DNA of 64,000 nt from assembly GCA_051294905.1 (NCBI GenBank), contig CM119372.1, positions 35,156,001-35,220,000 of the forward strand. Direction: 5' to 3'. The notes under the pieces were generated by a model. It was given only the letters and a program-made list of their open reading frames with translations. It had not been told where the DNA came from and made no database searches. Source of the stretch: Botryllus schlosseri (Eukaryota). The position numbers were made by a program, and so were the translations under genes. Below are positions 24,322-58,100 of this stretch, one piece after another. Each line of letters begins with the position of its first letter. Position 1 is the stretch's first letter.

Positions 24322-27300
24322 ATGAATACCATGAATCTAACTCTGGCCGGAACTGTGGATTATCAAGTTCCTTTTTGGTTGCGAATCGTTATCATCATCT
24401 ATATATCTCTAGTCACGTCTTCGGGAATTGTGATGAATGGGATTGTTATAACTGCCTTTTGGCAAAACAAGGTTAGTTCTGGTAGCACAGCGTTTAATCA
24501 AATTCATGGATTGAAATCTCTATCTTTACTGCATATCATGGGCGTGTACTTCGGTATTATTAAGTTCATTTAGATTTTACGTTGTGCTAGTTTGATCAGA
24601 TATGTGTAAGGCGTTGCATATTAATGCTTTTGCAGAATTAATATCCCGCATTCCAGTATTCCCTGCTCCGATAGGATTCCCGCATTAACCTGGTTATAAA
24701 GGCTGCAGAAATTACGCGGGTTATTGAGCTGTTCATCTGGTCGGCTAAATATCCTCTAGGCTTATGGCAACACTTACTGATCGGAGGTATTAGTTTTAAG
24801 TTCTGATCGGCTACTTGTTCTTGGGATTCGAAGATTTGCAGATAAAGACTGACTTTACTACTGTCCTCACCTATAACATAATATTATGACGAATGAAGTA
24901 CTCGATTTTGATTGATTTAGAAACTACGAACGCCGGTGAACTATTTGATTTTGAATCTATGCGTGTCCAACCTTCTCAGCGCTACCGCCAGCGCATCTTT
25001 AATCATACCAATAAATACGATTGGGAAGCAGTTTTTTGGCAACGAGGGCTGCATGATGTACGTTCTCGTCTGTGGAATATTCGGTACGTATCCTCAGGTG
25101 GCTATACTTTTCAATTCACACTGGTTCACTGGCGACTAGGGCTTGGGCGCTATAGGGTTGTTCAAATATATCTTTTTTTCAGGATTCCGAGGATTCACTG
25201 ATTACATTGTTGGTTGCATAAAAAAGTGCTTCACCTTCACACCACATTTGGCTCAATTCCGACCAGTAAAAGCCGAAGCAGATCCAATTTTAGATTTTGA
25301 GTTATCTACGAAAACGACGCAAAACAAATTTGACGGAATTCCAACCACTAGAAGCGAAGTTATTCGAGTTTTTTTATTAATTATTAAATTTATTGATCAA
25401 AGCTATTATTGCAAGTCCAAAACTTTCAGCCGCAATAACTGCGGTTCTACAGGTTGGAATTTGACAGAAATTGTGCTGCGTCGTTATTTTAGGAAGCTCA
25501 ACAATTTCTTGGGGTTGACAGTAAAATTTGGAGAATAAAATTCTTCGCGAAAATGACTTGACGTGACGTGACATTATTCCGGATTTGAATTTGATTTGAT
25601 TGACTAGCTAGAGAGTAAAAGCAAATTTTTCGAGTCAAGTCCAAATTATCCTGTAATTGGTGTGGCTGCACCTGTACGTACATGATCAAGACACAATGAT
25701 ATGTCATGGGTGAGCACTGAGCAAGCAGTCATGTAACGATTGCAAAGTCTTCTATTACTGAGCCTGAGTCGATATGTCATATCGATATGCATGAGTTTAG
25801 CTTTAGATCGACTGGAAAATGAGGGAATCTCATTCTCCTGCCAGCTAATTTGATTGAAACATGCCAATGGCGTTCATTACAGGCACAAGTAATTCAACTT
25901 CATTCCACTTAATTTAAAGTTGAGTGACGGCTCATTTCAGTGAGGTTAGGTATGGTGGTCAATCTGGTCATTTTAGTGAAGAATATTCCAAGTTATTGTT
26001 AGTGTTACCGCCGTTAGGGTTAGAGGTCAAACTTCTTGATTCAAATGTAATGTGACAATTTATCATCCGAAACAACTATGTTTCCTTAAGCCAAACGATT
26101 AAAACGGTGCTTTTCAAGTGCTACTAAAAGTTGTTCTATCATTCAAGCGATTTGTCATTCAAACTATTAATGCAGACATCCCAGTGTGTCACACAACACA
26201 CTTTTATCGTACTCAAATGATTTTTCGTTCATTGTTTTACTCCCTCGTGCCACATTCATCTCAATCAAATGAGATTTCGCTCAGTTTATAGGAACTCTCA
26301 GCTTCGTCATATTAGGTTCTATACGGGTACTTGATAATGTTGTAGCCTGCTTGCTCGAACGTATATAATTACAATAACACATCCGTCAAGTTGATATGTG
26401 ATGATTGCAAGGACAGACAACATCCGATTAACAGGAGTCTTTACGTTTCATCGATAGATTAGTTTCCGTTTGGAAAGTGATTTGCATGTATGAAGTTATC
26501 GCAGATACACCAACTCCAACTATATTAGTTTCAACGTATAGGAATAGGAACTAACTCGCTGATTTTCGTTAAGGTGTGACAAATTTATGTACGATTGTGG
26601 TTCTCTCTATCGCGCATTTCATCGTGATATGCAAGTCCAAGCGTTTCACTCTGTGTCGCCGTCATGTTATCGCAGGTTAGCGTTGAACAAGTATTGTGTT
26701 ATTTTCTGGCTAATATGTATTTCAAAAACAGAACGGGATTCGCCCAGACTTGAGTTGAGCAACTTCGCTAGTATTAGGAAAAATGACATAAGCCTGTTGA
26801 CTAGCATTCGCCTATGTTTCAACTGAAATCATTTTCCTTATTGGTAGTTGTATAAGAGGTACATATTTGAATTTACTAAGTGAATAGGTTATGATGATAA
26901 TTCTTCTTATGTATTTCAAGGAATCGTATTCGTCTGGATATGGTCGTCTCTGTGGAACGGGGTGCTCGTTGGTAGCGGGGGCTATGGTACAGACACCATC
27001 CAATCTGTTTGCGGGATAGTGTGGAATTCGGTCGATGAGAATATAGTCCAATATACCTTGTATATGACGTGTTGCTTCGTATTGCCACTGTCCATTCTCA
27101 CGTACTGTTACGGATCCATTATATACGAAATCCGACAGGTAATACTGTAACAGGTAACAAGTAGGCTATCTCAGCAACTGTCTTTCCACTGCATACACAA
27201 GTTGGAAATAATAGATCTACGTCCAATGTTAACGAATTTTACACAGTTACAAAACTTAAGGTGAAATTTCATCTCCTCTGCCGAACTGACATTGAAGTAT

Positions 27301-30300
27301 TGACCTTGTGCATTTTACAAAAAACATTAGGCAATAATTACTTATTAACCAACATTGAAAGGTGAATAGATATGTTATAGAAGCACAACATTATGTACAG
27401 GAAGCTAAGCTATCGATATATTTCACTAAATGAGAATCCAGATCAAACGGGACATACGTAAAATGTATTTATAGCTGACGGTACAACTTGCAAGCTGTGA
27501 GAGTATAATAAGCTCCGTGGCACACTGATCTCGCGCTTGATGCGTTCAAATCCGACAGTGTCTCAATCGAACCGATGGATAAGGTAACGTAGCCTGGACA
27601 CTGGACAGTGACGACAATCTGTTTCACAACGTACAAAGGTATCTCGTTTCTCGTCGACATCAAGAGCTGCCCTGCCAGAAGCTGCGAAAATGGTTTTTGT
27701 AATCATGGTCGCGTTTTTGATTTGCTGGTGCCCGTACGGCTGCGTCGCCCTGCTAAGAATGATCAGACCATCTCACAAGGTCAGCGCTATCAGACGTGAT
27801 CTAACTTCTGTACGGAGATCGCATGTTTGTTGAATTACAGATTCCTATTTTCGTGGAAAGTGCCCTGTCATTTTTCGCGAAATCGTCTTACGTTACGAGC
27901 CCGATCATCTACGTGGCCATGAATAGTCAGGTACGAATAACAGGAATATATAATTGAGATTGAGTTTGTCGTTGAGTTGAACACACCTTTGCTGACGTGG
28001 ATGACTGACGATCGATATATTTTAAAACTCGTTAATGAAAGTGGAGTCTACGTTAAAAGATGTAAAAACAAAATAATCATCTAAATCACATTTCTGACTA
28101 GAAGGTCAAAGAATTTATCCTCAATAGTTAAGGTCACTCTCTTTGCCATTATATAGTCACTTTATAGCAGTCTCGTCCGTGCATAGGATATTAGCGCTAG
28201 CGAGACCACAATATATTGTTATTGTGTGATAGATCATTAGATCTCCTGTGAATATATTACATCCGTTTACATCTGTTATTACATCTGTTTATTCGTGGAT
28301 GCCCTAATTTCTCTACCGCATTTCTGTAGTGCGTTCGTTGATGTTGTTTTCCAAATCTGAAATCTCGAGGTTGAAAATTGAACAGTATTTCTTCACCTTA
28401 TAATCATGCCCCACTGTCGGCTTTTTAATTTTTCATTGTGCTGCCCTGTTTTCAATGCTCTGTTCTATAAGTCGTCTTGGGGATATGTAAAAAGTATTTG
28501 AACAGCAATGGACCTGCGTGAACATAGGGAAAATAGGAACGGCAGAAGTTGGAGTTTTGTTTCTGCGATAAATTGATAGGTACAAACATAAGTACAACAT
28601 TTTATTAATCGAGTGTTGACCTCGGATTATTGTTTATTCGAATATCTAATGCTGTTGTGTCAACTGTGGGTCGGAACGTGTTATTACCGAATCCAAGCGC
28701 CAGCACATCAGAGATGATGAGCTAAAACAGGTGTGTTAATTATTCGGTGGGCTTCGATCTAGTTTTGCATGTCACCTACCGAACCGCTGATTAAAATTAA
28801 GCTCAAGACATATCTCAGACCTAAATACGATATATTCGCTATGAGTCTGTGTTGGACTTCGACCAAAATATAGTAAACTTGATGTAAGGATCGGCAAAGT
28901 TAATGTTTAGTAAGGATTCACAGTCGCAAGCGTTCTTACAAACTACCGAAATAGCCAAGCGATATTCCTTAAATGACACTGAGTTCCACCGTAGTGTCCT
29001 ATCGCTCAGGGGGAAGTCAGTAGCGACACAAAGCACATGCGTATTGCCTATTGTTACCATGACGATTTAGCATTCTCACTCTCACCGATCCGCTGCTTGC
29101 TCCTGCCACATTCTCCTGAGGTGCTGCATCGTTCCCCCAGACGGCATTACCACGTCGTTACGAAAAACTTTTTCATGATGCAACATTTGGGACTGATTTC
29201 AAAGGGTTCCAGGGCCACGAGCAGAGTAAAATGTCTATGTTACCAATGAGTATACCGCGGTAGCTTTCGATTGACAACCGCTTTATTAAATTTTGCTATC
29301 GTTAAGCCAGTCTAAATATCTCCGAAATTGCCTTTGGTCAAATGGAGCGAATGACGTAGCCCAAACCCAGTGAGCCGTTAGACTTGGTCGTATCCACACC
29401 ACTGTAAGATACTGTCAGAGCCGTAACTGCCGCATCTCAAACCTCCAATTGGGCGCGGGCTCGAAGGGGGCACTAAATTATTCCGCAAATCAACATAAAT
29501 TACAAAGTACTTTGTGAAAGATTTCAAGACTTCAAAATTTTTTACTTTTAATATTGGTACTGGCAGTGCCCCAAGGAAAAAATTGCGCATGATTTTTACA
29601 ATGAATTGGCAATGCAGCCCCACCATTAAGTCTCCACGACGCACCAAGACTTCTGGAGTCTCGGCCCACATGCGACTTCGCGAAGTGTGCCTAACAAAAC
29701 CTCGGCCTAAAATGACATCCGCACGTTGGCCATGAGAACAATCAACATATATAATCTATTATAGCCTAGTGCTAATTGTCCGGATGCAAGGAATAGTTTT
29801 GCGCTTGATATCGGAAATAACCGCCTCAAAGACCTCTACTATTAAATCTGATCACAAAAACTGGGAGACGATGAAAAATTATTTGCAACATATGCAATCA
29901 CTTATAGAGAAAATCGGATCCGTACTTTGAAATGTTTTCGCGCGTGGCGTGACTACGCCCACGCATAGATATGTGCACTGAGACAGAAAAACGTACTTTT
30001 CTGTTAGTGGTAAAGAAGGAGTGTGTAAGGCACCCCCACCCCCAGAAGTTTGGCGTATGATCATATGGGGCTTGGGGTCCACGACAAACGTTTGGGGGCT
30101 GACGAAGTACCTGGACAATGCATCCTGATCGAGGTCATCGCAATGAGCGAACCAGCTCTCGATACCAGAATGAGAATAGCTAATAAGTAGCTGCTAATTC
30201 ATATGTACGTTGTGAGTTGGGTTATCCCCATCGTATATGCCTGATTAGTATTGTTGACATCGGTACAATGGGAATCTCTGATAACAGAATCTCTAGACCA

Positions 30301-31890
30301 GTGGTTCTCAACCTTTTTGGATTCGCGGACCCCTTTTGACCGTCACGGCCCCTCGCGGACCCCCTCTAGTTTTAGTTCAATTTGAGCTCTATTATGGTGC
30401 AACCTTCATCTGTCTTGTGCAAATATGAACTGTAGGCTTGTGACAAACAGCAAAATACTGATTTTTCCTGAAGATAACATCATACAATTTATCTAGAAAT
30501 TGGTGGACTTTTATTATCTCAAAGCTAATTTTGCTGCTGTATTTCTTGAAGTAGGCTACGTGGTCGTGTCTTGATAATCCGCGTCTTCGTTTTGATATGA
30601 ACGAGGAGTGCCGAAAACCATTTCCGCAAAGATAGATGGAGGCTAATGCAATATTAACGCATAACGCTTCCGACGATACTTTTGGTGCGATCGCAACATT
30701 TATGGCACCAAAATGAAGAAACACATATTTTATAAACATATCACGTCCAGCATCTAGCGCAGGGATGGGCAACATACGGACCGCGGGCCGGATTCAGCCC
30801 GCGACGGCATTTTGATCGGCCCGCAGAGAGTTTCTACCGTCAAAGTGAAATCCTAATCTAAAAGTATTATAGAGAAATTTTATGCTCCAAAGAATGGATC
30901 CAAGTTTTCCTACCAGAGAAAGACTGTCATGAAACGACTTGTTCTGTACACGAGCAAACATTTTCGACCATGAACAATTGAACATTAACAAGACAAGGCT
31001 GCATACCAATAAAACTGGTGATATGAATTTCAGGGTTGGAGCGTAATGCTTTGGTAGCAACGAAACACTCCTTGTTCATCAAAACATCACCCTTGTCGAT
31101 AGGACATCATCAATAAGAATGAGCCAAATCTGATAGCCGAGCTTTAAGAGCAGGTATATGATAATCCGATTTATGACGAGTGACTGCCGAAAATATTCGG
31201 GTACATTTCAATATGAATATACTATGCAATTGTATATTAAAGTTCTGTACCTCCAAGAAGCAGTTTCCTGCATTGGGATAAATTATGGAAATACTTCAGA
31301 ATTTTTTATTTCAAACGACTGTTCACTAATTTGATGAGACTGACAACTTCAAATCGAGAAGATTTCGCAAACATTACGAAGTCACCCTGATTGACGTTGC
31401 TATCTCCATGTTTTTATTTTTTCCACAAACCCCAACAAAACGTCTCTAAACAGCAATATGTTTGTATCAGCAGGTTATTGGAAAATTGGCAATGAAAATG
31501 AGTTTCCACACTACGATAGTCCATGTCAGACGATTATTATGATGATATGAGTCATGAGGTTTTAGCAGTTGTGGTGCGAAACTGCCTCATGCTTTCTCAA
31601 ATTGAAAAATAAAATAAAAATTAGGTTATCAACCATTTTAAAAAATTAGAGGTCTTGCGGACCCCCTGAAATTGCTTCGCGGACCACCGGTTGAGAACCG
31701 CTGCTCTAGACATCAAACTGACAAACTGAATGCAACTTTTATACACTGGCTGCATAACTGCATTTTGCAGATGAAACAAAGCGTATTGAAGGTATTTCGA
31801 CTGCCCTCATCGAGGCGGAATCGATCGTCAATTTCAACGAAAGCAACGCATCTCACAGTCGAAAAATGTGGGGACGGCATTCGTACCTAA
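24322..31890 (+). CDS. Ciliary-type opsin, paralog 1, 7 exons, 327 aa predicted
   Basis: Exons 24322-24471, 24921-25083, 26574-26675, 26921-27138, 27639-27779, 27841-27930, 31771-31890; all GT-AG and phase-consistent (984 nt). Motifs KLRTPVNYLILNL, C110/C187, CFVLPL..YCY, FLICWCPYG, FFAKSS (Lys296), SPIIYVAMNSQ. Introns at G121 (phase 1), ~232 and Q312 match conserved c-opsin positions. The last exon (MKQSVLKVFRL...) is the least certain. Confidence 0.9.
30299..31703. mobile_element. hAT (Charlie/Buster-type) non-autonomous element in opsin-1 last intron
   Basis: CAGTGGTTCTCAACC...GGTTGAGAACCGCTG; perfect TSD CTCTAGAC; a second hAT-like end (CAGGGATGGGCAAC) lies inside at ~30759. Confidence 0.88.
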
Positions 31891-32182
31891 CCAGACAAGG
31901 AAGATGATTAACGATTTCCGGGTTTCGAAAAGAAGAAATTTGGATGCTATCTAAAGGGACTATTTTTAAATGGGCGCCAAGTACGAGCACCATTTGGATG
32001 TGGTCACCATACCGGCCGAATCGTCCGACAATCGTATATCGTGCATTTATGTATGAAGGAGGCAGAATAGCATTCTCCGATAATCGTGTATACGCATCTT
32101 GAGAATTCGGAAGTTGTAAACTTTGGTTATGGTGCGCCACATACCGATCCGGAAATATAACCAATTACCTGAATATCTAAAC

Positions 32183-32479
32183 CAGCGGTTCTCAACCGTT
32201 GGTCTGCGGACCTCTAGGGGTCTGCAAAGCATTTTCAAGGAGTCCGACAAGCCTCTAAATTTGCAAAATGGTTAATACCTTAATTTGTATTTCTTTAAAT
32301 TAAGGAAATAATGGGGCAGTTTCACTTCATCGCTGCTAAAACTTGAGGACTCACATCAACAGAATGGACGTTTTGTTGGGATATGTGGTAAAATATAAAG
32401 GTCACAGTCGTGCAGGTCAATCAGAGTGACTTCGAAACGTTTGCAAAACCCAAAAAGACAAAAAGGTTGAGAACCACTG
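32183..32479. mobile_element. hAT MITE
   Basis: CAGCGGTTCTCAACC...GGTTGAGAACCACTG; TSD ATCTAAAC/ATCCAAAC. Confidence 0.8.
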
Positions 32480-32623
32480 ATCCAAACGCTTACATCCATT
32501 AAGAAAAATGGGAATATTGCTGCTTCTATTTCTCTTTGTTAGCATCAACAGCAGTTTCAACATATATTTTTGAAGCGAAAATCTGCAAATGGAAACGGAA
32601 AATCCTTTACTGTGTGTGTACAC

Positions 32624-33285
32624 TAGGGCTCTTCAAAAATGACTTTTTTTCTCAAATCGCACTGGCTACTTGATAAAATTGTTAGGTTACCTAATTTAAG
32701 GCTACACACAAAATTTGGTTCAATTCCAGCCAGTAACCACTTTGCTACAGTAGAAGAAAGTTTCTATTTATTATATAAAAATAAATGATAAAAGATTTGA
32801 AGATTTTCTGTTCACCCCATGAAAGTGTTAGGCTGTCTATAGAAACGATGCTCACCAAATTTGGTTCAATTCCAATCAGTGAAGCGGAATTATTGCCGCC
32901 GAAAAATTTGGATTTGAATAAAATAGTATTTACGGTGAGCACAACTATAATAAATAAACAAAGATTCGGTCACCGTAAATACTATTTTTTCCAAATCCAA
33001 ATTTTTCGACGGCAATAACTCCGCTTCCACAGGTTGGAATTGAACTAAATTTGGTGAGCGTCGTTTCTATACACAGCGTAACACTTTTATGGAGTGAACA
33101 GAAAATTTCCAAATTTTTTATTATTCATTTTTATATAATAAATAGAAACTTTCTTGTCCTGTAGCAAAGCGGTTACTGGCTGGAATTGAACCAAATTTTG
33201 TGTGTAGGCCTAAATTAGGTAACCTAACAATTTTATCAAGTAGCCAGTACGATTTGAGAAAAAAAGTCATTTTTGAAGAGCCCTA
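32624..33285. mobile_element. Fold-back MITE with ~300-bp inverted arms and ~70-bp loop
   Basis: TAGGGCTCTTCAAAAATGAC...GTCATTTTTGAAGAGCCCTA; perfect TSD GTGTACAC. Confidence 0.92.
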
Positions 33286-33562
33286 GTGTACACGTTTTGA
33301 GATGAACAATGTTTAATTAGCAGCACATCTATGAATGTGGCGCTTGTTAATGCCAGAAACGTTTCTTCGCCCGCGTATCGACGTTATTCCGGATCTAAAG
33401 TGCGTTTTATGTAATATATATTACCTCTTTACACAGTGATCGGAACTCCGTGTGTTTTGTCTAACATTTTCTTCTATAAATGCGGGTAGCTGTGTTCAAA
33501 TGTATCGCAAGTGGTAAAAGTGATAACGTGATATTATTTTATCGCAAGCTTTGCCTCTACTA

Positions 33563-35291
33563 CAGAGGTGGCCAACCTGCGGTCGTAGAAGGAAATTTGT
33601 GCGGCCGTGGACACGTTATTCAATTTGTATGTGTTGGCGGCCATCGACACGCAATTTTAGTTTACGAATAGACTCCCGATTTCTTGAGAGATTTTAACTG
33701 ATCTAGAAATTTTTTTCGCGCCTGGCGCGATTCAATGCGACTTCATTTTTTGATTTTGATATATGGTAGCGCTATTTCCAATCATCAGCACAGATTTCAA
33801 TTTCCAATCATCAGCACAGATTCGAACAGCAGAAGAAAATGCTGCGCCCCATTTTGAAATACAAACTCGCAATCGTGTGCTCCTCACTATACCGAAAATC
33901 CTGATGGGAGGTCAAGAAATAACGGCATGCAACAAAGTGACCAATAACAATTTATAACTTGCCTTAAATTTTAGAAAACACCTCCCTCCATCAACTTTAC
34001 CAGTGATACCAGTGAATCTGATCACATGGGCTAAGGAAGGATAAATTTTTGATAGCAATCAGTGTTAGGATCAAGTCACTACCTTCGAGTCACGAGTCAT
34101 TGGACATTTTGACTCGAGTCAAGTCAAGTCAATAAATTTTCGAAGGTGACTCGAGTCAAGTCAAGACTCGCGAATTTTGGAGATGACTCGAGTCAAGTCG
34201 ACTCAAGTCAAGTCAACTCACGAGTCAAGTCACAATCCAAGTCAAGTTGCCTTTTGGAAGTATGAGGCATGATTAGCCTACGTCATTGCATTTTGATACG
34301 TGTCTGAAATACAGATTGAGTGGTCATTGATATTTCGAGCCAATGAACGAATATAGAGTAAAATATACACGAAAGAAGGCGCTGTATCGCTCACATATAC
34401 GCATAATTGCTAACCTACGTGAGTAATTGCATAGCCTCAGTTTAAAGTTACCAGTCAATCTAGAGAATAGAGAAACTTATTGATAAGATGCAATACATTT
34501 TCCATTTACAAATAGATATGATACAATTCGAGCCTGTGCCAATGGTTGAGGACTGTAATAAATAATATTCGAATTCAATTTCAATAAAATAATAGGTTTG
34601 GTTAAGGTAAGAACAGAGTACCGAAATAGACATTTTCCTATTGAATTACTTTACTATACTAGTTTACGACAACGTAAGCTGTAAGCTTCGATAAGTTCGT
34701 TTACGGTCAATTTATTCGTGAGAGAACAATGGAGGCTGACTAAAACGCACGATCATTGAGTGATTGGTCGCTCTCACGGATTGCACCAGGGTTTCGCGAA
34801 CAATCCGAACATAAGCAAGAAACAGTGATTTTTATAGACACGGATTACTTGATGACTTGAAATTGACTCGTGAATTTTGCTCCGAGTCACGAGTCAATCC
34901 ACATTTCTTATACGCCGAGTCAAGTCAAGTCAAGTCATTTTAGCAAAGTGACTCGAGTCAAGTCAAGTCATACGAAAAAGGTGACTCGAGTCATCCCAAC
35001 ACTGATAGTAATATATAAAACTACCAATAATAATGACGAAATTCATTTGTGAAACTGAAAAATATTTCGCGCTTCTCGCAATTGTGACCAGTATGCTACA
35101 TGACCACGCAGTCGCCACTCTCGATTTGTTTCGTATAGTAAGCCTGTATGATTAAATAGCTTAGTTCAGAGTTCCCCGGAAATGGCCACAGACATATAGC
35201 TAGTTCATGACGACTATCTCCTGGATTGCGGCCGTAGGCTACATCAGTAGACAAAATGCAGCCGTGAATCGCAAAAAAGTCGGCACCCCTG
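33563..35291. mobile_element. Old hAT MITE hosting a nested insertion
   Basis: CAGAGGTGGCCAACC...GTCGGCACCCCTG; TSD degraded. Confidence 0.55.
34060..35004. mobile_element. hAT MITE with GACTCGAGTCAAGTC subterminal arrays
   Basis: CAGTGTTAGGAT...ATCCCAACACTG; TSD ATAGCAAT/ATAGTAAT. Confidence 0.82.
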
Positions 35292-39071: not shown

Positions 39072-40364
39072 GTAATCATCACACATATAGTGCTAAATGT
39101 TCATGAGACGGATTAGCCGACAATTTCTATTCAGTATTCATATTGCATTCGCGACAAACTGGGTGTTTCGGTTCGTGTAGCGATCCCACCGTTACCAATG
39201 TCGCGACTTGGGTTCGGTAAATGTAGCGGGCTGAAGAAATGTGGTCGTTAGCAATGGATGGGTTCCTCCATATATCGCCAAAGATTTATTCGAATAATTC
39301 GAAGTATAATGAGATGATTGCTAAAACTTTGGGCTGTGAAGATGTATAACGCTGGATGGAACTAAATGCAGGATTTGGAAACGATAAACAGATTAAAATG
39401 AATGAAGCAAGCAATAAACAATAAAGCAAGCATCTTGAATGGTAATACCGATAATACCGATAGATCTAACGCCAAACTCTTGCGGAAAAATAGTGCATTA
39501 TACTTGTGTCTCGCTATCCGCATAATTTTTAAACTGCCCTATCCAACGAGGATGACACGGAACTGGGATACCTGCTGGCTAAACCCGTTGTCGTGTCAAT
39601 GGAATTTGGTTTTACAATGAGTTTGAGATTAGTAGTAGTCCTATTATTATGAGGATTCATATCGTATATAATGAATGCATTCACCAGTCAAAATGTAAAT
39701 TGAAGTGATAACTATATGTAGCCTACCTATCAATATGTAGCTATATCGGAATGATATAATCGATATCCCTACGGCCTACACACTGTATTATGGATATTGT
39801 TGATTGCAATCACAGTGTGCGGTGTTTATACGGTCAGCGGCACCTCTTCCTCATTAGCAAACATGTTTGATCACTGAGAAGATTGAATTATTCGGTTACT
39901 AACCGTTGAACTAATGATTGAATCATGTTATGATCGTAGTATTCCATTGGCAACTTATAATCTCTTATTGTAACTTGGACTATTAGCCTGCTGTGCTCTA
40001 TACTCTGCGATCGCATATCATATTTTCCTATAATTATTATATGTAATGGGCACGTTGATTAATTTCCGAGGCATTTTCTTACAGGTGGTAATGCAGACTG
40101 TCGTACACCAAACCATTCTGGTGCTTATAAGCGCCACTAGACTTTTATACAATAGCACCAATAATTATACCCGAGTACGCGAGAGCTAACCTAGCTGAAA
40201 GATATTTGCTTGTTGTGTGAGTTTTTATAACACTACGATTCCCATGCAGACTAGCTTGCACTGATCATACCCGATTTTAATTGTAAGCTATGATTTTCAG
40301 CAAACATATATATATCGGGCATAACACAGCCCCTTGACCATAACACAATTTATACGGTGCGTAT

Positions 40365-43300
40365 ATGTCGGATCAATGCTTTGCCAGCACTATGAACGAA
40401 AGCTTCCACGAGTACGAGGAATATCAAGCTCCTGTTTGGATGCGAGCTGGAATCATAGCTTACATATCGCTGGTTACAATTTCTGGTACACTAATGAATG
40501 GTGTTGTTATTATTGCCTTCTACAAAAATAAGGTAAGTAAAGTGTTTGTGCCTGGCGTTACTAAAATTATATCTACAAACAATTTTCAAACTGCATAAAA
40601 CAGTAATACTTGAGATTCTCCTATTAGAAAAGTGGATGGTATTATCGGATTTCAGCCTCTGTAACCACGCGATTAGGAAAACGGAAGTAGTTGGCCTATG
40701 AACCGTCAAACGTTAGACACCAACATCACGCAATGTCATAATAAGATTGAAACCGTGGTCGGTGCCAGGCTCAGTATAGTTTAAATCGTGGTTCCTAAGA
40801 TATTCTGGTATTTGAAGACGATAAAACAAATATTCAGCGGGAATTTTAAAGCCTGCAGTTTTCGGCCATCATCCGGTGGTAAGGCAACAGTATTTTGGCA
40901 ATAGGTATGAAGTAATACTTTTATATCAATGTGGCATCGCCATACCTCAATTGCTCAGAATCAATTGTGTTCGAGAACCTGGATGATAAAATGAACGACT
41001 AAGATGTGACGTGCTGACAACAATTTGTCAGTGTTACTGATCAATGATCAAATTCGTCGGTGGTACCACAACGCTGCGCTACAACCCTACATTTTATTAG
41101 GGCTATCTTAGCAAGTTATCTAACAACCGGGAATAAGGATGCCTCTGTTCCGAAATTTGAATTTTGAAATGTGAATTAGGGTTGTCCAAAATTTGGAAAA
41201 TTTTACAAATCCTCCGTTGTAATGTCTTATTTTATAGATTATTGATAAAAAACGACACTGGGCCTAAAAGAAGCTCAGAGGAAGGCCGTTAAGATTTCGT
41301 GCAAAGCGTTAGAAAGTAGCTGCCGAAGAATGGGCGTGCCACCGACCATGGAACGGCGAGAATACTAGTAATCACGAAGCCACGGCTCTTGATTAGCTAA
41401 TCGGCTATGCTTCAATGACCACGACAGCAGCAGCTTGCTGATTAGGTGATCAAGGAGTCTGCTAACGGCGGCGATTGTGAAAGCGCATTGTATGTAGGTT
41501 GACAGATAATGATTTAGGATTGATTCAGAGTATGTTGAGGTACGAGATACATGATGAACAAACAACAGCTGCTTCACAAAAACGTCTGAAGCATGACCGC
41601 TTTATTGTGAAGGATACCGCCGTAGCCTATATGCCTTGTTTTCAACGAGGGAATGCATAGGCGCTTATGCAAGTGGCGACAGATTCCTAGTTTCAGAAAG
41701 GATATATCATTTTTGAATACATATATAAAGCTTAACAACGACACTATAATTTCTGTGATCTTATTGGGCTCAGGTTGTAGTACATGGTTGAAGTTTTGAA
41801 TGCTCTAAGGATCGGCTGAATCAGCGGGTTTTGCTTGGCACTTATCAGATGCTCATATCAAAATGTATTCACCTGCAAGTGTTGTCAAGGTCCTTAATGA
41901 TGACGCAGAAAAGAGGTGTAAAAGTAAGCACATACTATGCTGGATATGATATGTCAATGATATGGCAATTAAGTCCTTAATAATCGTGCAGAAAAGGGGT
42001 GTAAAGGTAAGCACAGAAAATGCTGCATAGTGCATAGTATCCAGCATAGTTGGTATATTATATCAAACATATTATGTGCTTACATTTACACTTCTTTTCT
42101 TTTACACTTGCAAGTGAATACAATTTGATGTGAGCATCTGATAAGTGCCAAGCATAACCCGCTGATTCAAGCAATCCTTACAGCATTCAAAACTTCAACT
42201 ATGTACTACAACCTGAGCCCAATAAGATCACAGAAATGATAGTGTCGTTGTTAAGCTTTATATTTGTATTCAATAATGATATACCAATGCTCAAACTGGG
42301 AATCCGTCGCCACTTGCATAAGCGTCTATGCTTTCCCTAGTTGAAAACAAGGCGTATAGGCTACGGTAATGCTTTTAGACGTTTTTGTGAAGCAGCTGTT
42401 GTTTGTTCGTCATGTATTTCGTACCTCAACATACCCTGAATCAATCCTAAATCATTATCTGTCAACCTACATACAATGCGCTTTCACAATCGCCGCCGTT
42501 AGCAGACTCCTTGATCACCTAATCATCAAGCAGCTACTGTCGTGGTCATTGGAGCATAGCCGATTAGCCAATCAGGAGTCGTGGCTTCGTGATTACTAGT
42601 ATTCTCGCCGTTCCATGGTCGGTGGCACGCCCATTATTCGGCAGCTACTTTCAAACGCTTTGCACGAAATCTTAACGGCCTTCCTGTGAGCTTCTTTTAG
42701 GCCTAGTGTCGTTTTTTATCAATAATCTATAGAATAAGACATTACAACGGAGGATTTGTAAGATTTTCCAAATTTTGGACAACCTTAACGTGAATGTCTC
42801 TTCCAAAGTGGTTAATTTACCGCCCATGATAATGAAGACAGTTCATATTTTAAAACTCGGCTGTTAAACAGAATCTTGTCTGTTTTAACTTCGGTAAATC
42901 AACCAAAAGCTTTTTCCTTAATATTTCGATGCGAGCAGTATGTCTGTAACACAGAATTCACAGATTATCGTCCATTGCCGGGATGAAAGAAACTATGTTT
43001 TCTGCAATTCTTGCAATTTATCATTGAACCTGATGGATTCGATTTTTCCGCCGTTATAGAACCCGAAGTGCTTCTCTCACTTTTGCAAGACGAGAGATAT
43101 ATCGATGAAGAAAAATAGTTTTAGTCATTTGCTTTGTGTCAGCGACAACAACTCTCTGTATTAGATTCAAGATTTGTGACTGGTTTTTGAACTACATAAA
43201 AAACACTTTATAATCCACATACAGCCTACCCCAATCGAAGTGAATCTGTACTGACTAAAAAATGCTTAATTATTACCATCCAATATTTGACGTAGAGATT

Positions 43301-46300
43301 TGGGTATTTTGAAAATGTGAGGTCTGAACCACAACCACTACAGGATAATCAATAGGGTGGAGTGAAAATGACTTTTTTTTTCCAATCGAGAAAAGGGCTT
43401 CCTCAATCCTGACAAATGACCTAAAACTTCAATAAAAAGTGACTTTCTTTGAAATCCCGTAACTTGTGCTGATGCTTCTGTTACAAGCTTTACATGTTGT
43501 TCCACTGTTTGATTGTGGCATGGATAAAACAACATCAGAGGCTTCTCGCGGCATTCTTCCAACTCTGCATCAGTTAGGTGCTGAATCGCTGGGGGAAGTT
43601 GTTGATAAGGTTCAATATCAACCAACTCGTGGTATGCCTTGGCTTCCAAGTTCAACTTTGGGACACAGAATAAACGAACAGGACCGCAGTTCAATTGGTT
43701 GGAACTGCTATGACTTTCAATGTCCACAAGTGAATTTTATTCAGCGGCATGCTTTCGAAACGCAAGCACCATGGTCACACCCTTATTTCGTATGTCTTCA
43801 TTATCATCTACCAGCATTGCAATCATAATATTTTCGGGGTATGCGAAATAACCGTTTCTTATCACCACATTCAAAGCAATTTTCCGAACGTTTCCGTAAG
43901 AGAAATTCAAAACCTGTTGAATCAAGTTGAAGAAGTTTATTCAGGATCCATGTGTTATATGTTTGTTTCGCTTGATCTCAAACCAAGTCGGAAAATATAC
44001 TTCAAGACAAAAACGAACCAGAATCTCCAGGTTCAAAGGCGGTTCATCAACTGTTACATATTACCGTAAAACTCTACACTGCATCCTAAAGTTAGCCATC
44101 TTGAATGCGAAACTGGTCCAACCTCCAAGTAAGCCAGATCATCATCAGCATTTCCTTGAATAATTGCCCAGCACATTCATAAGCATATAACTGGTCTTTA
44201 CTTAAGTCATTAACAATTTCCGATGGGAGCTTTGGCAAGGCCCTACGTGGTAGCGAGAGCTTTTTGAATTGAGTAACTGGCCAACAAGATACACTTCCAA
44301 GTAGTTTTTTTCAATTGGGTGTGACCATAAGGTCCTGGTGATTCGAAAACATGCCGCTGAACAAAATTCAATTATGGACATTGAGAGTCATAGCAGTTCC
44401 AACCAATTGAACTGCGGTCCTGTTCGTTTATTCTGTGTCCCATAGTTGAACTTGGAAGCAAAGGCATACCACGAGTTGGTTGATATTGAACCTTATATCA
44501 ACAACTTCCTCCAGCGATTGAGCACTTAACTGATGCACAGTTGGAAGAATGCCGCGAGAAGCCTCTGATTTTGGTTCATCCATGCCACAATCAAACAGTG
44601 GAACAACATGTAAAGCTCGTAACAGAAGCATCAGCACAAGTTTCGGGATTTCAAAGACGAGATGGCTTCGTTCGCCGAAAAATTAAGTCTCGTAAACTGA
44701 TGAAAAAACTTGACAAAAGAATGCATTTTCAATGAGTCGTTAAATGTGAGTGTTTCATTATGATGTTTTAAACCGATCTTAAAAGGACTGTGTTGTGAAT
44801 ATATTTGTAATATGGGCCCAGTATTCGGTATTGTCAGTGTGTTACTTTTCTTTAAAAAAAACTGATGACAGATCACAATTCGTCAGAATAAATGCTGAAT
44901 TTCAACAAAAATGTGCGTATATATTGTTTTTTGGCTATAACTCATTTTGTGTTCACAATAGAGAAAACTTTCTTCTGAAGACAGATAGAAACATGATGCT
45001 TCCACAGATTTTGAGCTATATATCATGACGCTACGACCAGCGGTTGCCGAGATGGGCCATTTTACCCCCCCACGTGCAGAAATTGGGGGGTTGCCGGCTG
45101 GAAAATGGGGGCAACATCCTGAAGTCACTTTTTATTGAAGTTTTAGGTCATTTATCAGGATTGAGGAAGCCCTTTTTTCGATTTGAAAAAAAAAGTCATT
45201 TTCACTCCACTCTAATAATCAACTGCCTCAATCACGGCGCGTGAATATGTTGTCGAAGTCACATGGGGTCATATCAGCACATTCATTTCATACCTTCGTC
45301 TGAACCTCATACCTTCGTCTGAACCTAACTCATAATTATATAGCGATCATAAATCCTTCGTGACTACGTACATACCTCCGTACTTCCGTACCTGCATGTA
45401 TATAATTTGGATTAAAATGTTTTACTCGATTTATACCGCAGTATAATTTGTGGTTTCGTGTAGAATGGGTGTATATTCACATCCGCATATTAGGAGTGGT
45501 ACACGGGTGGAAATACGCTCTATTCGAAAAGAGTTTACCTATTGGAAACCCATACCTCCATTTCGACCAGAGTAGCGAAGCTGACAATAATTTGACCACT
45601 TATGCGTCATTAATGCGCGACATGCCCAAATGTCGACACCCATTCTACTCGCCATTATCCTCACCATTACAGAGCCTTCGCACACCGCTGAACTACCTCA
45701 TCTTAAACCTGTGCGTATCGAACCTACTCGGCACGACTGCGAGCGCGTGCTTGGTCATCCCGGTAAACGCGCTCGGGGAGCAGATTTTCGGAAATTTGGG
45801 TTGTATGATTTACGTTTTCACCTGTGGAATGTTAGGTGGGTGTTATCGATATATATATGGACAGATAAACCCTTAAGGCAGGGGACGCAAACTCAAAGCG
45901 GGTTGTGGTTCACTTTTCCAATTTCGCAATGGCCGCGGGGCGCAAGAATGCAATATTGAGAAAAAAGCAACAAGTTTAGCAACCACGTTTTTAAAACTTT
46001 ACGCCAATACAGCGCTGTGCTCCTCAACATTGGCGACTGTAGTACATTTATAAAAGTAGTACAAATACAACAAGAAACATCGTGATAATCACTATCGTTT
46101 TATTTTGAAATAAGAGCTGCGCACGATACCTGACAACAGTTTTCATCGAATAAACACTATGGAATCAATATTGGGGCTGGCGAGATACGTTACTATAGCT
46201 GTATAGCAGAAAGACTGCCTCCTCCTAAAGCTTTATCATATGTGGGAAAGCCCTATACCGTTTTCTTTGCGTCTTGGTCTTGGCATTGTCTGGGTCATTA

Positions 46301-49300
46301 AACTTCGAGGCAATATGCCAATTGATATCGGCAGATCCTCCCTCGATGGCATGCCGTTGGCAGCGTCGAAGCCGTTTCAGCTAGTGAGGAATAATGATAT
46401 TTGGCTCAGACGAATAGCTTATTTTGGGACAACAACAACAATTTTTTGGAACAAAAATAAAATTTCGTATTTCAAAATACTTTACTTGTCGTTCTTCCGA
46501 ATTTCTAAATCAGCTGGCGGGTGACAAAATATGACCTCGCCGGCCGCGTGTGGGTGACTCCTGCCATAAGGAAATATTTAGTAGTAGCGATGCTACGCAC
46601 GTTCGGTTCATGCTCGTCTTCGGTATGCTGACATCTTCAATTCCAAGGTTGGCATTTTCAATAAAACTCCCATAACTCATCTTACCCGGTGAATAAGTTG
46701 GTGAAATATTATAATTATACAATGATGGTAACATTTTTATAGAAAATTCTTGTACTTCAACTTAATACCGCTCCATGCACGTCGATGACAGAGAAAAAGA
46801 ACATTAGACAAAAAAGTGAGCCCTAATTAGCAAAACACCCTAATATTCTCGAGAATTTTGCTTGCAATAGCACACCTGATTTTGGTTGTAAATGATAGAA
46901 TTAGTTCCCTTCCGTCACGGCTATACGTGCTTTGCACATAAAATATATGCAACCGAAAATGATCGCTGCAACAATGAAAATTCAACGACTGTCCCCGGAA
47001 TGTTATTTCGTGACGCGGAGTCGTTCTGTCGTGTGTCAGATATTTGTCAATCTGTACTGGCCCGCATTGTGTGTCAATAGTAGCGGTCTTCCGATCGGTA
47101 AATTCTCTAAATTACTTATTGCAAAAGTAATTGTCGATAATTTTGTATACCGCTCGCATCTTCTAGTCCGTGTAGCACCTGGCGTTACTGGCGAAATGCG
47201 TCACTCTCTTCAGCAATAACAATAATAATAATAACATGCAGTAAAACGATCTGTGTTTCAATTGGCATTGTGACGCCGTGCGTTGAAGTTCACACAAATC
47301 CACACATTTAGGTGGTTGCATCATTGCTACTTGGTAGCATTGAATACCTACGGACTATGTATGTTCAATGACTTTTCTCGACAACCAATAGCTGTCCAAA
47401 TATTATTTTTCTATAATTTTATTGGTGTTCTACATCTTTGCTTTTCAAACTGTTGGATGATACGGACGTGCATGGAACAAAAATTACAGCGAGGATGAAA
47501 AACGTGGTGCTGATGAAATCGTGCATATATTTCGTAATTTTTCTGACGTGGAATGATCTAAATAAACTTAATAGCATATTTAGTAGGGATGGTGTGAACG
47601 TGAGGTTCACGTTCGCGTTCTGTGTGTGAACCTCGGGAATTTAGAGGTTCGCGTTCACAACAGAACCTTGGTAGGTTCTGCACTGTGAACCTTTCTCATA
47701 TATTACAATTTTCACTTCAATATAACATCTTTGGTTCAAATTTATTTCATTTCAACTGCGGGCCACTCTATGCATGGCTCTGACAGCATTCAAAATCAAC
47801 ACTAAACGAGCACTTTGGCAATCGCAAAAGTTTTACTTGCTTTGTTACAAAAGTTTGCTCGAAATATCCAGCTTTCCGTTTGTGAATATTTAGTGACCCT
47901 CTGCTGTGAGCTAGACCCGCAATCACACAACATCACGAGCGACATACGTAGTCAGCAGCGAATGATGCTTATTCAACCAATCAATGAGATTGATATCGTT
48001 TTTGATGTAAAAATGTAGCAGGCGTCAATTTTGACTTCATATCTTTACTGCATCATTAATACCAAATCCGTGCGATTGAGGTGTTGGCTACGGCTATATA
48101 ATTTGTCGATGGGGTAATATCGGTAGCAAGTATAGGATCCCATTTTACACTCTGCTCAATATCAATGTAGCAATACTCAGACGCCGAATAGGCCTACCTT
48201 GTCCGGTCTGGCCTAGACCGTTAAGGCGAAGGCTTTTATTCCCTGGTAAGTCTTCGTCGAAATTGTTGGCAAAGCGACGAAAGATATTGATTTTATGGGA
48301 GTATTATATCCTTTGATTGCCTTAGTTGATACTTTTAGCTACGTTTAAAACGCCAATATGTACTTCAGCATTGTGGCATTATGTGGCCCGAGTCATCGCT
48401 AGGTATCGCGTACATTAATATAGGCTATCACTTCATTGAAAGACAGGGTTAGAATTAGCAATATGACGTCACGTGACGTCATGAAGTTCACGTTCGCGTT
48501 CGCACAGAACCTTTTAAAAAGGTTCGCGTTCACACGAACCTGAACCTTTCAGAGGTTCACACCATCCCTAATATTTAGGTACAGTCAATCCCAAAGTTTT
48601 TCTTTGCGACACGAAGACTATAATTTTGGGTCGCGACGGCACCAGAGCGATATTTTAACATGCATGTAATACTTCTTTAATTTCCTGCAAAAAATACTTC
48701 TTCGCGTGATTTCGTGTGACATGAAGGTATGTCGTTTACGCCGACATGCGGATGTGCAAAGCGCGGTACCAGAATGATCGGTGATGATAAAACTTAAGCC
48801 ATTATTGACCGTCGCTGGTGGGTCAAAACCTTCGATATTGATATGCCTAGTTGCCGAAATGGTTGCCACCGATGTATAGCGCCAGCCTTGCAATCCGAAT
48901 AGACGGTAGGGTCTACACATGCAACCTTAGAGGAAAATGATGAACCCAATTTTTAGGGCGGAGATAATAAAGTTGGATTAGCAATGAAATCGATCATCCC
49001 GTTCGTCAGGATTTATCAACCCAGGATTAAGGAAATCGGTAGATCGCAGCGCATAAAGTTGGTGTTAATCTCATGATTTAACAAACCGGATTAAACTATC
49101 GATAACTGCGTACCGTTCCTACGCAAAAATATTTCCGATAATGACCTACCGATTGTCAACTAGGTAATGGCTTCACCAAACAATCAACGAATTAAGTACC
49201 CGCGATTGCAGAGCGATATCAATATTCTATAATCCGTTTCTTAGCTGTACGGTACTAATTTGACACGACTTTCGTTTGGCGATGATGATAATTGTTCCTA

Positions 49301-51960
49301 TTACAGTGGCAGTATGGTTATCAGCAGGATGCTGTTTCATTCAACAAATCGACAACTGACAGCCTATTACGCGTTTTCGCATTATGATGTAACGGATAAC
49401 GCCACTTGATTGAAAACTCGGGACATATCGATTAGACCAGTGGTTCTCAACCGCCGGTCCGCGGACCGGTGCCGGTCCGCGACGACATTCCTGCCGGTCC
49501 GGCAGGTATATTACAATTCTATACCATATTTTCAAGATGCAATGTTGAATGCTTGTCCATTGATAAAATAAATAAAACATCAGATTTTAAACTGATTCAG
49601 GATTTCGCGAGGTAAAAGTAGGGCTGGAAACATGTTCGATTTGACTTAAAGTTCAAGACGTGTGCTTTGACGACATCCGAGCGACAAGTACAGAACAGAT
49701 ACGAGCTGCCTCATCGCAAAACAGCACAGTTCGCGCAATTTTCGATTAATTCATTTTGTGCCAGACCGCAACCGTAGGGTTGTGGGTGAAAGATATTAGG
49801 GTTAGGGGATGGCAGATAATAGGGTTGCGTGACTGACGTATTTTAGGATTTCGCGTGAAGGATATGAGGATTAGATGTGATAAAATCCTCGAACTAACGT
49901 CCGAAACCCCCTACCCTAATATATTTTATCCCCCAACCCTAACATCCGTCATATGCCAACCCTAATATCTCCCACTCGCAACCCTAATATTGGGATGCCC
50001 TGACCAAAACCATAACCCTAACCCACTTCCAACCCTAATCTCCAGCACCCACAACTCAAATCCCATTCCAATACCAAACAAGAAAAAAAAATTTTCCGTT
50101 TATAAATCTTGACCTCGGGGGTATACTGAAGAAGCGCCAAAATTTTCGCTATGGGCGCGATTAAGCTACATGAACTCTCTACGTACACCGAGTAGAATGA
50201 ATGTGCTCGCAAGTACAGGTACAGTACAGGTACAGTACATCCACCCAACTGCGGGGTCAGGGGCCGAAGCCCCCGGAAACTTGGCTTATCGCACTGTGGA
50301 GGCCCAAGACTACCGTTTTTGGGGGTGGATTGACGAAGTGCTTTTGCGGCCCGGATTTACGGATGACCGGTATAGCTGCTGTAAGGTGTTTTCTTGCGAC
50401 ACGCATTGTATTCGTATTTGCCAGAGTAGCCTGCGTATGGTGGCAGTGGGCAATGAGCAAGCCGTAGCTCGACAGGGTGCTTGGTTAGACTCCGAAACGC
50501 TTCTTCTCGCGATATTGTCAAAGATATAAATATTATTCGAGTTGGCGTGATCGGTTTAACCCACGGCCTTTGGCGCGAAAGACTGCAAACGACTATCGGC
50601 GGTAGCACGTTTATCTGGACAAGGCAATTTTAACGCGACTAAGCAGACTCACTACCATAAAATCACATGGATGTGATCATGAAGATAATTAATTACGATC
50701 AAACCCTCAAAATGTCACTTTCTAGCATCATAAAATTGCAAAAAACGGTTGCATACTTTACATTTGGGCTTCATTTCAATTTTGAAAGTTCACCGGTCCT
50801 CCAGGCATTTTTTGAAATTTTACCGGTCCGCGAGGTGAAAAAGATTGAGAACCACTGGATTAGACGACTAACCATCGCGCGTAACCTTTTCCAACTTCTT
50901 GGCGTCGCGATTAGCAGTATTTATTCACGCGATTAGCATTTTTCCGGATCAGCCAACTTCATTATCTCCGCCTAAAATGCGACCCGATTAGCAGTGTACA
51001 ATCACATAATTAGCATTCTCCCGGATCAGCTAACTTTATTATCTCGGCTCTTAATAATGCCCTTCATTTATGTTCCCTTGAGCTGCTATTGGCTTGCAGT
51101 TAATCATTTTCGGTAGGTTATAGTGCGGATGATGTTTTTTGCATAAAAAGTACGCATAGTGCTCAAAAAGGACTGTTCTATCTCATGCTATCCAACGATT
51201 GTTTACGGTGGCGAAAAACAATTTTTGCTCGCCGTGGTCTCAATCTCATTTTTATTGCAGAAAATCACATCTCCCAAGCCCACCACAGAAATTTTATGTA
51301 GTCTTTAATTGCGAACCGTTACTTTAACTCGTTTGTGCGCGCACGAACTTATGAATTTTTGTGTCATGAAAGCATGGGAAAGCTATAAATTATTTTCGGA
51401 GTTTTAATTTGGGATGTATATCTAGTGAATCAGTGGCTAATATCGAGTAATAAGATTTAAATCATTTTGCGCAACGCTGAATCACATATTCGCCATTTTT
51501 AGTGTTGAAGCGATTATATGCTAAGTAAGTTGAGTTGAAGCCTTTTCTAGTTTTATGCGTGCCAAGACAATGTGCCTCTTGGGTCGTAAATTGACACCCT
51601 GTGTTTATGCCAATGCATGCATGTCGGCGCTATAGGGTTGTAAATGTAAATTGATCGTACAAGGTAATAGAAACGTGAAATAGTAAATAGCAATATCATA
51701 CGAAGATCTTGGATGAAAGGACGATTCGAGATTCAGATGAGTTATACTTATTCTCTCATCCAATTTCGTCACTCATCACCAATTCGATCTGGTATGGATT
51801 GACGCTATAAACTTTGTCTTACCAGCATACCAAACTAAACCATCCAAAATATTTATAGGGGTCGCAAATCTATGGACGATTACGGTGCTGTCCATTGCAC
51901 ATTATATCGTCATATGCAAGTCGAGGCATTTCTCTCTTCGGCGACGTCACGTGATCTCAG
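40365..51960 (+). CDS. Ciliary-type opsin, paralog 2, exons 1-3 only (later exons not found in window)
   Basis: Exons 40365-40532 (alternative start 40392), 45673-45835 and 51859-51960. Exon 2 and 3 lengths (163, 102 nt) and phases are identical to paralog 1. Reads SLRTPLNYLILNLCVSNL, GCMIYVFTCGMLG|VANLWTITVLSIAHYIVICKS. Confidence 0.9.
41177..42787. mobile_element. Fold-back hAT-type element, ~700-bp inverted arms and ~220-bp spacer, in opsin-2 intron 1
   Basis: Mirror ORFs 41365..41577- / 42369..42599+; ends TAGGGTTGTCC / GGACAACCTTA; TSD ATGTGAAT/ACGTGAAT. Confidence 0.9.
43353..45214. mobile_element. Rearranged hAT-superfamily (hATm/hAT-19-like) transposon with inverted transposase remnants
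   Basis: ~90-bp TIRs TAG(G/A)GTGGAGTGAAAATGAC; perfect TSD ATAATCAA. Transposase fragments GPVSHSRWLT, RNGYFAYPENIMIAML, PCHNQTVEQHVKLVTEAS..RDGF on - (43450-44350) and again on + (44375-44735). Subfamily label is from motif recall. Confidence 0.8.
45879..46563. mobile_element. hAT MITE
   Basis: CAGGGGACGC...GTGACTCCTG; TSD CCTTAAGG/CCATAAGG. Confidence 0.65.
47584..48570. mobile_element. hAT MITE family A
   Basis: Perfect TIR TAGGGATGGTGTGAAC; perfect TSD ATATTTAG; highly similar to 58719-59704. Confidence 0.93.
49438..50857. mobile_element. hAT (Charlie/Buster-type) non-autonomous element
   Basis: CAGTGGTTCTCAA...TTGAGAACCACTG; perfect TSD GATTAGAC; internal TTAGGG-rich inverted segment 49775-50050. 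Confidence 0.88.
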
Positions 51961-57525: not shown

Positions 57526-57914
57526 ACAATGGAACTGTCATCATAGTTATGTAGGGTTACCATACGGAGGTTCGAGCGGGTCATTCGGAAGTTGATTGTA
57601 AGTGCCTACTTTTAATTTTAGTCAACACCACTAAATTTAAGTGAAAAGATGGTAATTCTGGAGTCATCACTCCCATTCAACACCAAAAGTTTTCCAGCAA
57701 AAAATAGCAAAATCTGCTGTCATTCTTGATCAACTAACTTTCCTGCATTGGTAAAATTGTCCTCATTTTTCGATTCTGTAATATGGTAACCCTATAGTAA
57801 TGACTGTTCGAATACGCCTAATAAAATGCATGAAATGCCATACTTGTATGTTTTTAATTGGATTTGTATTCTGCAGTATTGCATAAAGCAAAGATGTGTG
57901 GCAGCTGACAGCTA

Positions 57915-58100
57915 GGTTGGGGTGGAAGGTATGTCCCCCATATAGGGTGGGGGGTATTACCCCATATAGGGCGGAAGGTAGTCCCCCATATAGGGTGGAG
58001 GGTATTCCTCCATATAGGGTGGAAGGTAATCCTCATATAGGGGGACGGTATTCCCCCATATAGGGTGGAAAGTATTTCCACCATGATGGGGGGTGGAGTT
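57915..58100. repeat. ~24-bp tandem repeat (CCCCCATATAGGGTGGA(A/G)GGTATT), EnSpm subterminal
   Basis: About 6-7 visible copies; gives the repetitive ORF 57854..58186 (HPIWG). Confidence 0.9.

Follow-up and report, generated by a model that had tools for sequence, protein, structure and literature searches.

Does an opsin need the arginine within E/DRY, the motif that ends its third transmembrane helix (TM3)? The question is raised by a 64,000-nucleotide stretch of the Botryllus schlosseri genome (GenBank assembly GCA_051294905.1, contig CM119372.1, positions 35,156,001 to 35,220,000; hereafter the window), in which two neighbouring ciliary-type opsin (c-opsin) genes, gene 1 and paralog 2, carry Ala-His-Phe or Ala-His-Tyr (AH[FY]) in place of E/DRY. 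Here we find that the substitution extends to a whole tandem array and is accompanied by changes of further switch residues, and is thus broader than in the original prediction, which was made from the letters of the window. The array represents a real, selected and probably expressed tunicate c-opsin variant subfamily with a fixed His3.50 and a dismantled ionic lock.

Ala-His at positions 134 and 135 across a tandem opsin array

Both AH[FY] exons lie where they had been predicted, with open frames and AG/GT edges. The gene 1 exon (26574-26675; 102 nt, phase 1-1) translates as ...VLSIAHFIVICK (ending SIAHFIVICK), with the AH[FY] match at 26612; the paralog 2 exon (51859-51960; 102 nt) translates as ...VLSIAHYIVICK (ending SIAHYIVICK), with the match at 51897. 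Rhodopsin residues 67-112 and exon 2 of gene 1 form a gap-free alignment, which fixes C110 and Y113, assigns the split Gly to the G121 codon and places Ala134-His135-Phe136 in gene 1. The numbering E134A and R135H is therefore correct, and an alignment to coelacanth RH1 concurs. A different exon 3 with E/DRY was looked for as a hydrophobic-preceded [ED]R[YFWC] frame, and none is present in introns 2 and 3 of gene 1, intron 2 of paralog 2 or positions 51961-64000.

A genome search with exon 4 returned nine matches at C2:35.10-35.56 Mb, one of them bearing a stop codon; most of C2:35.27-35.43 Mb and other gaps of the array were covered by exon queries only. No exon 3 was located for the stop-bearing copy (gD). 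All nine array copies of exon 3 that were read encode Ala-His at 134-135, whereas 87 of 87 reference opsins have Arg135 and 87 of 87 have Glu or Asp at 134. AH[FY], in place of the near-universal Arg that couples such receptors to G proteins, is thus not due to chance. Two pieces, the stop-bearing exon 4 at C2:35.436 Mb and a degenerate exon-2-like sequence at C2:35.6725 Mb, are likely to be dead members of the array.

Gene 1 has seven exons, all GT-AG, and an open frame of 327 amino acids that includes K296 and D181. Its exons 2, 4 and 5 match the class A Pfam domain 7tm_1, each below the whole-protein cut-off as a fragment; exon 7 has no Pfam match, and its homologue is present in both other complete copies checked. 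The best PDB matches are rhodopsins, seven helices can be placed in the frame by alignment, and Lys296 is present in all seven array copies with exon 6 read. On this homology, the array genes are animal (type-2) opsins by descent.

Set against the 87 reference opsins, every array copy covering the site keeps N55, N78, C110, L125, C140, Y178, C187, F212, P215, Y223, F261, W265, P267, Y268, K296, P303, Y306 and N310. Altered in every copy are D83N, G90S, residue 94 (Ile or Val in 8/8 covering copies; most commonly Ser, 57/87, or Thr, 18/87, in the references), residue 113 (Tyr or Phe), G114V, E134A (9/9), R135H, P142, E181D, E247L (7/7), V250, M257I (7/7) and N302S/C. Gene 1 exon 2 thus reads N83, S90, I94, C110, Y113 and V114; in the three copies in which helix 8 was read, gene 1 included, it opens with Met in place of Phe313. 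One copy (gE) also carries W161Y and G188V. The whole ionic lock (E134A, R135H, E247L) and the D83/N302 pair are lost jointly. In place of NPxxY, seven of seven copies have Ser or Cys at 302 and retain P303 and Y306; the tripeptide at 310-312 is NSQ in gene 1 and its twin copy, NTK in the twin of paralog 2 and NRN in four others. As neither E/DRY nor NPxxY is intact, these are not canonical G-protein-activating c-opsins by motif.

Descent, selection and expression of the AH[FY] genes

Two trees were built, with 7 partial or near-duplicate rows excluded from the first and 19 rows from the second (other long rows being removed); peropsin was the only outgroup, and the set was without invertebrate c-opsins, xenopsins, RGR and retinochrome. 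The AH[FY] clade is placed among vertebrate visual and non-visual opsins (the VVNVO group as defined in PMC11893379) at 100/99 and 100/100. Tunicate opsins are its sister (88/77 and 89/80) and parapinopsin the next sister in both trees. The stem of the clade measures 2.58 changes per column, and the first tree gave a warning of long branches meeting. By its tree position, the clade is a VVNVO member by descent, a lineage-specific tandem expansion among the tunicate vertebrate-type c-opsins; it groups apart from peropsin and not with the chromopsins/tetraopsins (RGR itself being absent from the tree). Exons 1-6 of the array genes have the same boundaries and phases as those of an ERY/E113 opsin on C14 (see below). 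The introns at G121, about 232 and Q312 we take to match those of vertebrate rhodopsin. Tree and exon structure together uphold the c-type identity that the original prediction had assigned.

The closest known systems differ from the array at the switch. Tunicate c-opsins (Ciona P0147, pinopsin-like P0150, Styela P0069 and Clavelina P0149 and P0151-P0153) share K296, C110/C187, W265 and Y268 with it, but all eight named proteins fetched keep ER[YF] and N302, identity between gene 1 and the Styela protein is only about 31%, and Tyr/Phe113, Asp181, AH[FY], S/CPxxY and Leu247 are peculiar to the array clade. One of these proteins, the Clavelina pinopsin-like P0153, combines Glu90 with Leu113 and carries Asn306. 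Parapinopsin, a bistable vertebrate pineal opsin, was the best blastp match to gene 1 among three references (32%, E 1e-44), and a seven-exon profile search ranked a Styela opsin first, followed by matches (77/78) mostly named parapinopsin. Unlike the array, parapinopsin keeps [ED]R at 134-135, E113, E181, E247, M257, NPxxY and N[KR]Q.

Other opsin loci of the same genome suggest how the motif arose. Six loci (C16:14.42-14.49 Mb, C2:37.13-37.22 Mb and C8:19.05 Mb) read SRY at 134-136 in 6/6 copies of exon 3, with K296 and NPxxY kept in 6/6 copies of exon 6; the SRY locus at C2:37.135 Mb has a stop within exon 4. Three further opsins read ERY, a tandem pair at C14:11.52-11.55 Mb and one at C6:13.59 Mb. 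The C14 pair carries E113 (one member has Glu83, not Asp83); the C14 ERY/E113 opsin is 61% identical to a Styela opsin, and the copy placed in the tree joins it at 100/100. Together with a cellulose synthase match over the Pfam cut-off elsewhere in the 495-Mb genome, this identity marks the genome as that of a tunicate, probably an ascidian. Codons 134-135 are GAG-AGG in the ERY genes, TCN-CGT/AGA in the SRY genes and GCN-CAY in the array, so a single base change can turn Ser into Ala, and another Arg (CGY) into His. In the tree the array joins two SRY genes (91/97), a grouping to which the long-branch warning applies. From codons and tree, the order ERY, SRY, AH[FY] is likely, and the SRY genes look like an intermediate step.

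Relatives outside this genome were sought in several ways. None was found among 17 candidates for exon 4. Exon 4 gave 40 matches at 29-38% identity in a library of 1.84 billion sequences, the top one an unrelated repeat protein; the ten looked up comprise five Opn3 clusters, one peropsin, one generic GPCR and three unnamed entries. A Styela query returned eight tunicate proteins, all ER[YF], and a sequence look-up found no look-alike in other genomes. With queries that were exon-sized or indirect, the absence of AH[FY] opsins elsewhere is weakly shown. In titles and the openings of abstracts (most subscription journals and supplements lying outside this scope), neither the AH[FY] clade nor a natural His135 animal opsin was found, and the portions available of PMC13170672, PMC12584886, PMC10733189 and bioRxiv 10.64898/2026.04.15.718617 do not mention the clade. 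The His135 in PMC9923458 is microbial. Large opsin phylogenies could hold these sequences unremarked.

The original prediction argued for selection rather than decay from two diverged, intact paralogs in the window. Gene 1 is intact, but paralog 2 comprises exons 1-3 only, and the argument, wrong for the window locus, is rescued by the remaining array copies. Between gene 1 and the complete twin of paralog 2, dN is 0.169 and dS 2.28 (ratio 0.074; 236 codons); against the window fragment of paralog 2, dN/dS is 0.128 (137 codons), and within the other subgroup it is 0.2-0.4. A codon model over nine copies gave an omega of 0.20 (lnL -3720 versus -3841 at omega=1; 2dlnL 242). The gene 1/2 group (0.12; 2dlnL 168) and the other group (0.35; 2dlnL 46) each fitted better than omega=1. 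In simulation, the joint invariance of Ala and His had p=1.4e-6 under neutrality and 0.02 at the clade mean omega. Neutrality is thus rejected: the AH[FY] subfamily is under purifying selection.

Expression was assessed in four sequencing runs: X1 and X3, which are RNA by presumption, and two true RNA-seq runs, read to 6% and 13%. In X1 and X3, contig pieces break off at exon edges and leave unplaced overhangs, at both borders of gene 1 exon 4 (stopping at 27138, 78 letters; starting at 26919, 128 letters) and at 40532 in paralog 2 (167 and 128 letters), and an X1 contig starts at 31768, beside exon 7. None of the four runs has any depth in two intron bins (25904-26504 and 28308-28908), and exon bins reach 3.5-9.4 in X1/X3. 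These ends and empty bins fit spliced transcripts that come from gene 1 and paralog 2 or, in either case, from the twin copy, and the presumed-RNA contigs suggest that the array genes are probably expressed. Among the 15 of 169 joints listed there are no exon junctions, all 15 coming from repeats. In addition, at 24569-25006 and 25007-25061, X1 has contigs that cross intron 1 into exon 2, representing unspliced RNA or DNA, and some 15 reads of run X21 start on exon 2 and bear variant letters (of the six listed, 4 match the twin copy), with almost none on exons 3-6.

Candidate functions of the altered switch

We tentatively favour, at a probability of roughly 40%, a low-gain, His-coupled and probably bistable pigment whose cytoplasmic switch would have been rebuilt and not abandoned. 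Retinal would be bound with D181 as counterion: Glu181 is the counterion in bistable, low-efficiency opsins, and the combination of an acidic residue 181 with no E113 suggests a pigment of that kind (PMC9923458). Light would shift TM6 as usual, and His135 would replace Arg as a weaker contact to the Gα C terminus, as in GPR1, in which H3.50 contacts G352 of Gi, H3.50A abolishes signalling and coupling is described as weaker (PMC11515964). The output would be low-gain Gi/o/t signalling leaning to GPCR kinases (GRK) and arrestin via the Ser/Thr-rich tail, and the lost dark-state restraints (134, 247, 257, 94) would offset the weaker coupling. The active-state residues Y223, Y306, P215, F261, W265, P267, P303 and N310 are kept in all covering copies, and a fixed, non-drifting His135 suggests a job. 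A standard NPxxY is dispensable for signalling; variants can signal (PMC9368030). GPR1/CMKLR2 (DHY), with the same His3.50, serves as a model for weak Gi coupling combined with arrestin recruitment or scavenging (PMC11515964, PMC8429170), but it is an unrelated peptide receptor that keeps Asp3.49, and its likeness to the array is one of analogy, not of sequence comparison.

Several points weigh against weak coupling through His135. Sites facing Gα are altered together, namely R135, P142 (conserved in 83/87 references), V250 (87/87), N302 (87/87) and F313, with M253 also altered in one subgroup, and at least some of these are retained by GPR1. In rhodopsin, recognition of the G protein depends centrally on R135, and the R135W mutant is hyperphosphorylated and arrestin-bound (PMC6147235); GPR1 itself is treated elsewhere as a non-coupling scavenger (PMC8429170). 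Retinal binding is unassured, with G114 (87/87 references) changed to Val and G90, W175, P170/171 and F208 altered. Among six near-complete copies, 78 of 233 columns (33%) are invariant, a background at which two invariant sites have a probability of about 0.11, so Ala134 and His135 are constrained, not uniquely. Exons 3-6 have a depth below 1 in the two true RNA-seq runs.

Somewhat less probable, although still a serious competitor, is a retinal pigment uncoupled from G proteins, which would bind and isomerise retinal but have arrestin as its sole output or serve as a retinal buffer or photoisomerase, convergent with RGR/retinochrome or with atypical scavenger receptors. Such a pigment would fit the loss of R135, E134, P142, E247, V250, D83, N302 and F313 with K296, D181, W265 and Y268 kept, the 10 Ser/Thr of the tail and the strong arrestin binding of R135W rhodopsin (PMC6147235). 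GPR1, C5aR2 and the ACKRs, all with altered DRY, are described as scavengers, but in neither C5aR2 nor ACKR2 was uncoupling due to the altered DRY (PMC8429170). RGR and retinochrome share with the array K296 and a derived NPxxY (NAxxY, VPxxY, YPxxY; PMC9368030), but belong to another opsin clade, whereas the array genes have c-opsin exon structure and nest with c-opsins, not with the peropsin outgroup. Nor are the losses enriched on the cytoplasmic side. In a test of 55 conserved positions in 37 thinned references, gene 1 differs at 12 of the 29 sites on the cytoplasmic side and at 10 of the 24 on the extracellular side (Fisher p=1.0), and four other copies gave p values of 0.26-0.78. A specific loss of the G-protein face is thus unsupported in all five copies; the clade is divergent throughout, and selective loss of this face is not demonstrated. 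Retention of Y223, Y306 and N310 and the fixity of His also count against uncoupling. The absence of canonical signalling that the original prediction proposed is therefore plausible but not favoured over weak His coupling, as losses are equal on both faces and the His3.50 of GPR1 activates Gi.

A naturally unlocked receptor is unlikely: it would have high dark or light-independent activity, modulated or turned off by retinal or light, and its output would be limited by His135. In bovine rhodopsin the triple mutation T94I/E134Q/M257Y produces full activation in the dark, at 122% of wild-type light activity, and any M257 change except to Leu raises dark activity (PMC13076888); 94, 134 and 257 are all altered in the array, as is 247 (Leu). 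However, in rhodopsin T94I acts through the E113 salt bridge, which the array proteins do not have, and the mutants retain R135 (PMC13076888). The SRY sister on C8 has I257 as well. We give a similarly low chance to its extended form, in which removal of all dark-state locks (I/V94, A134, L247, I257, N83, S/C302) combined with a His throttle would have produced a constitutively active or arrestin-only photopigment, tuned or turned off by light, by way of the surviving ERY, SRY and AH[FY] steps.

Still less probable is a receptor independent of light, with a chemo-, thermo- or mechanosensory or a scaffolding role, that has ceased to hold retinal usefully and expanded like a chemoreceptor array. 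Tandem birth and death with a stop-bearing copy and half genes, the long stem and the pocket changes G114V, G90S, T/S118G and W175S would agree with it, but K296, D181, C110/C187, Y178, F212, F261, W265 and Y268 have persisted across subgroups between which dS is saturated.

The least probable reading, that there is no functional novelty but decaying duplicates, an assembly artefact or A-to-I editing of His to Arg in mRNA, could appeal to the half-length paralog 2, to near-identical blocks (gene 1 and its twin differ by a dS of 0.05) that could be haplotypes assembled in a row, and to the single A-to-G change that turns CAT/CAC into CGT/CGC (the His codon is absent from the 40 of 1036 variant rows listed), but it is countered by an omega far under 1 across deep splits, by AH in at least three deeply diverged subgroups, by the finding that a 25-base stretch around the His codon has a best reverse-complement match of only 14-16/25 (6 copies, hence no long editing duplex) and by the inability of editing to restore E134, E247 or N302.

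Gene structures, duplicated blocks and implications

Table 1. Exons of gene 1 and paralog 2 and the break in paralog 2 (window positions)
Feature	Positions	Strand	Evidence and residues
Gene 1 exon 1 (ATG to TM1)	24322..24471	+	GT donor, open frame, position table; N55 kept
Gene 1 exon 2 (intracellular loop (ICL) 1, TM2, TM3 start)	24921..25083	+	AG/GT; Pfam 7tm_1 E 2.4e-4; gapless to rhodopsin 67-112
Gene 1 exon 3 (TM3 end, ICL2)	26574..26675	+	Ala134-His135-Phe136 at 26612-26620; Pro142 to Ser
Gene 1 exon 4 (TM4, extracellular loop 2, TM5)	26921..27138	+	D181 at 26992-26994, C187, P215, Y223
Gene 1 exon 5 (ICL3, TM6)	27639..27779	+	L247, P248, I257; F261, W265, P267, Y268 kept
Gene 1 exon 6 (TM7)	27841..27930	+	K296 at 27880-27882; SPxxY for NPxxY; NSQ for NKQ
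Gene 1 exon 7 (helix 8, 39-aa tail with 10 Ser/Thr, TAA stop)	31771..31890	+	Homology
Paralog 2 exon 1	40365..40532	+	Start codon at either 40365 or 40392; ends of X1 and X3 contig pieces at 40532
Paralog 2 exon 2	45673..45835	+	V94, C110, Y113
Paralog 2 exon 3 (final opsin exon of this copy)	51859..51960	+	Ala-His-Tyr at 51897-51905
Break in paralog 2 intron 3	52456..64000	.	About 15.7 kb of unrelated repeat-rich DNA from 52456 on, reaching beyond the window

No match to exons 4-6 of paralog 2 was found by tblastn within the window, and genome searches with exons 4 and 6 found no paralog 2 exon ahead of the next paralog. Without exon 6, the paralog 2 locus in the window encodes no K296. The complete twin of paralog 2 lies about 350 kb away at C2:35.551-35.565 Mb, and similarity to it stops at the break. 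Past the window, from C2:35224170, the 3' half of another paralog (exons 3-6, without exons 1-2) begins within its intron 2. The 5' half of paralog 2 (40365-52456) and this 3' half (C2:35224170-35226318, open frames) are on the same strand, 15.7 kb apart. Judging from this arrangement, the two half genes look like the flanks of one deletion in the tandem array, and they may be either a pair of dead fragments or a single chimeric gene. As exon 3 is symmetric (102 nt), an in-frame chimeric AHY opsin would result if either copy were skipped.

Long blocks of 83-99% identity link window positions 24000-36300 to C2:35.534-35.546 Mb and 42400-52456 to C2:35.553-35.559 Mb; such similarity would reflect either a segmental duplication of recent date or a pair of haplotypes that the assembly placed one after the other. 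Elsewhere in the window, positions 1-3624 and 4269-7917 make up an inverted repeat of 3.7 kb at 93% identity, with tandem repeats inside it, and a dispersed repeat of about 1 kb occurs in four copies (18537-19514, 38058-39075, 47577-48577 and 58712-59711) and in two other loci read, one of them at C2:35.6725 Mb.

Arg3.50 has been held to be near-indispensable in opsins, in keeping with the references examined here. The B. schlosseri genome holds ERY, SRY and AH[FY] members of a single vertebrate-type lineage, the derived ones under purifying selection, and so provides a natural series in which to probe the need for the ionic lock and for Arg135. The series bears on whether GPR1-like His3.50 coupling arose again in a photopigment, and on how a c-opsin may turn arrestin-biased or retinal-handling. 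If the array encodes a working low-gain or arrestin-biased pigment, it would be a possible optogenetic tool. Ascidian opsin repertoires can far exceed the Ciona-type handful.

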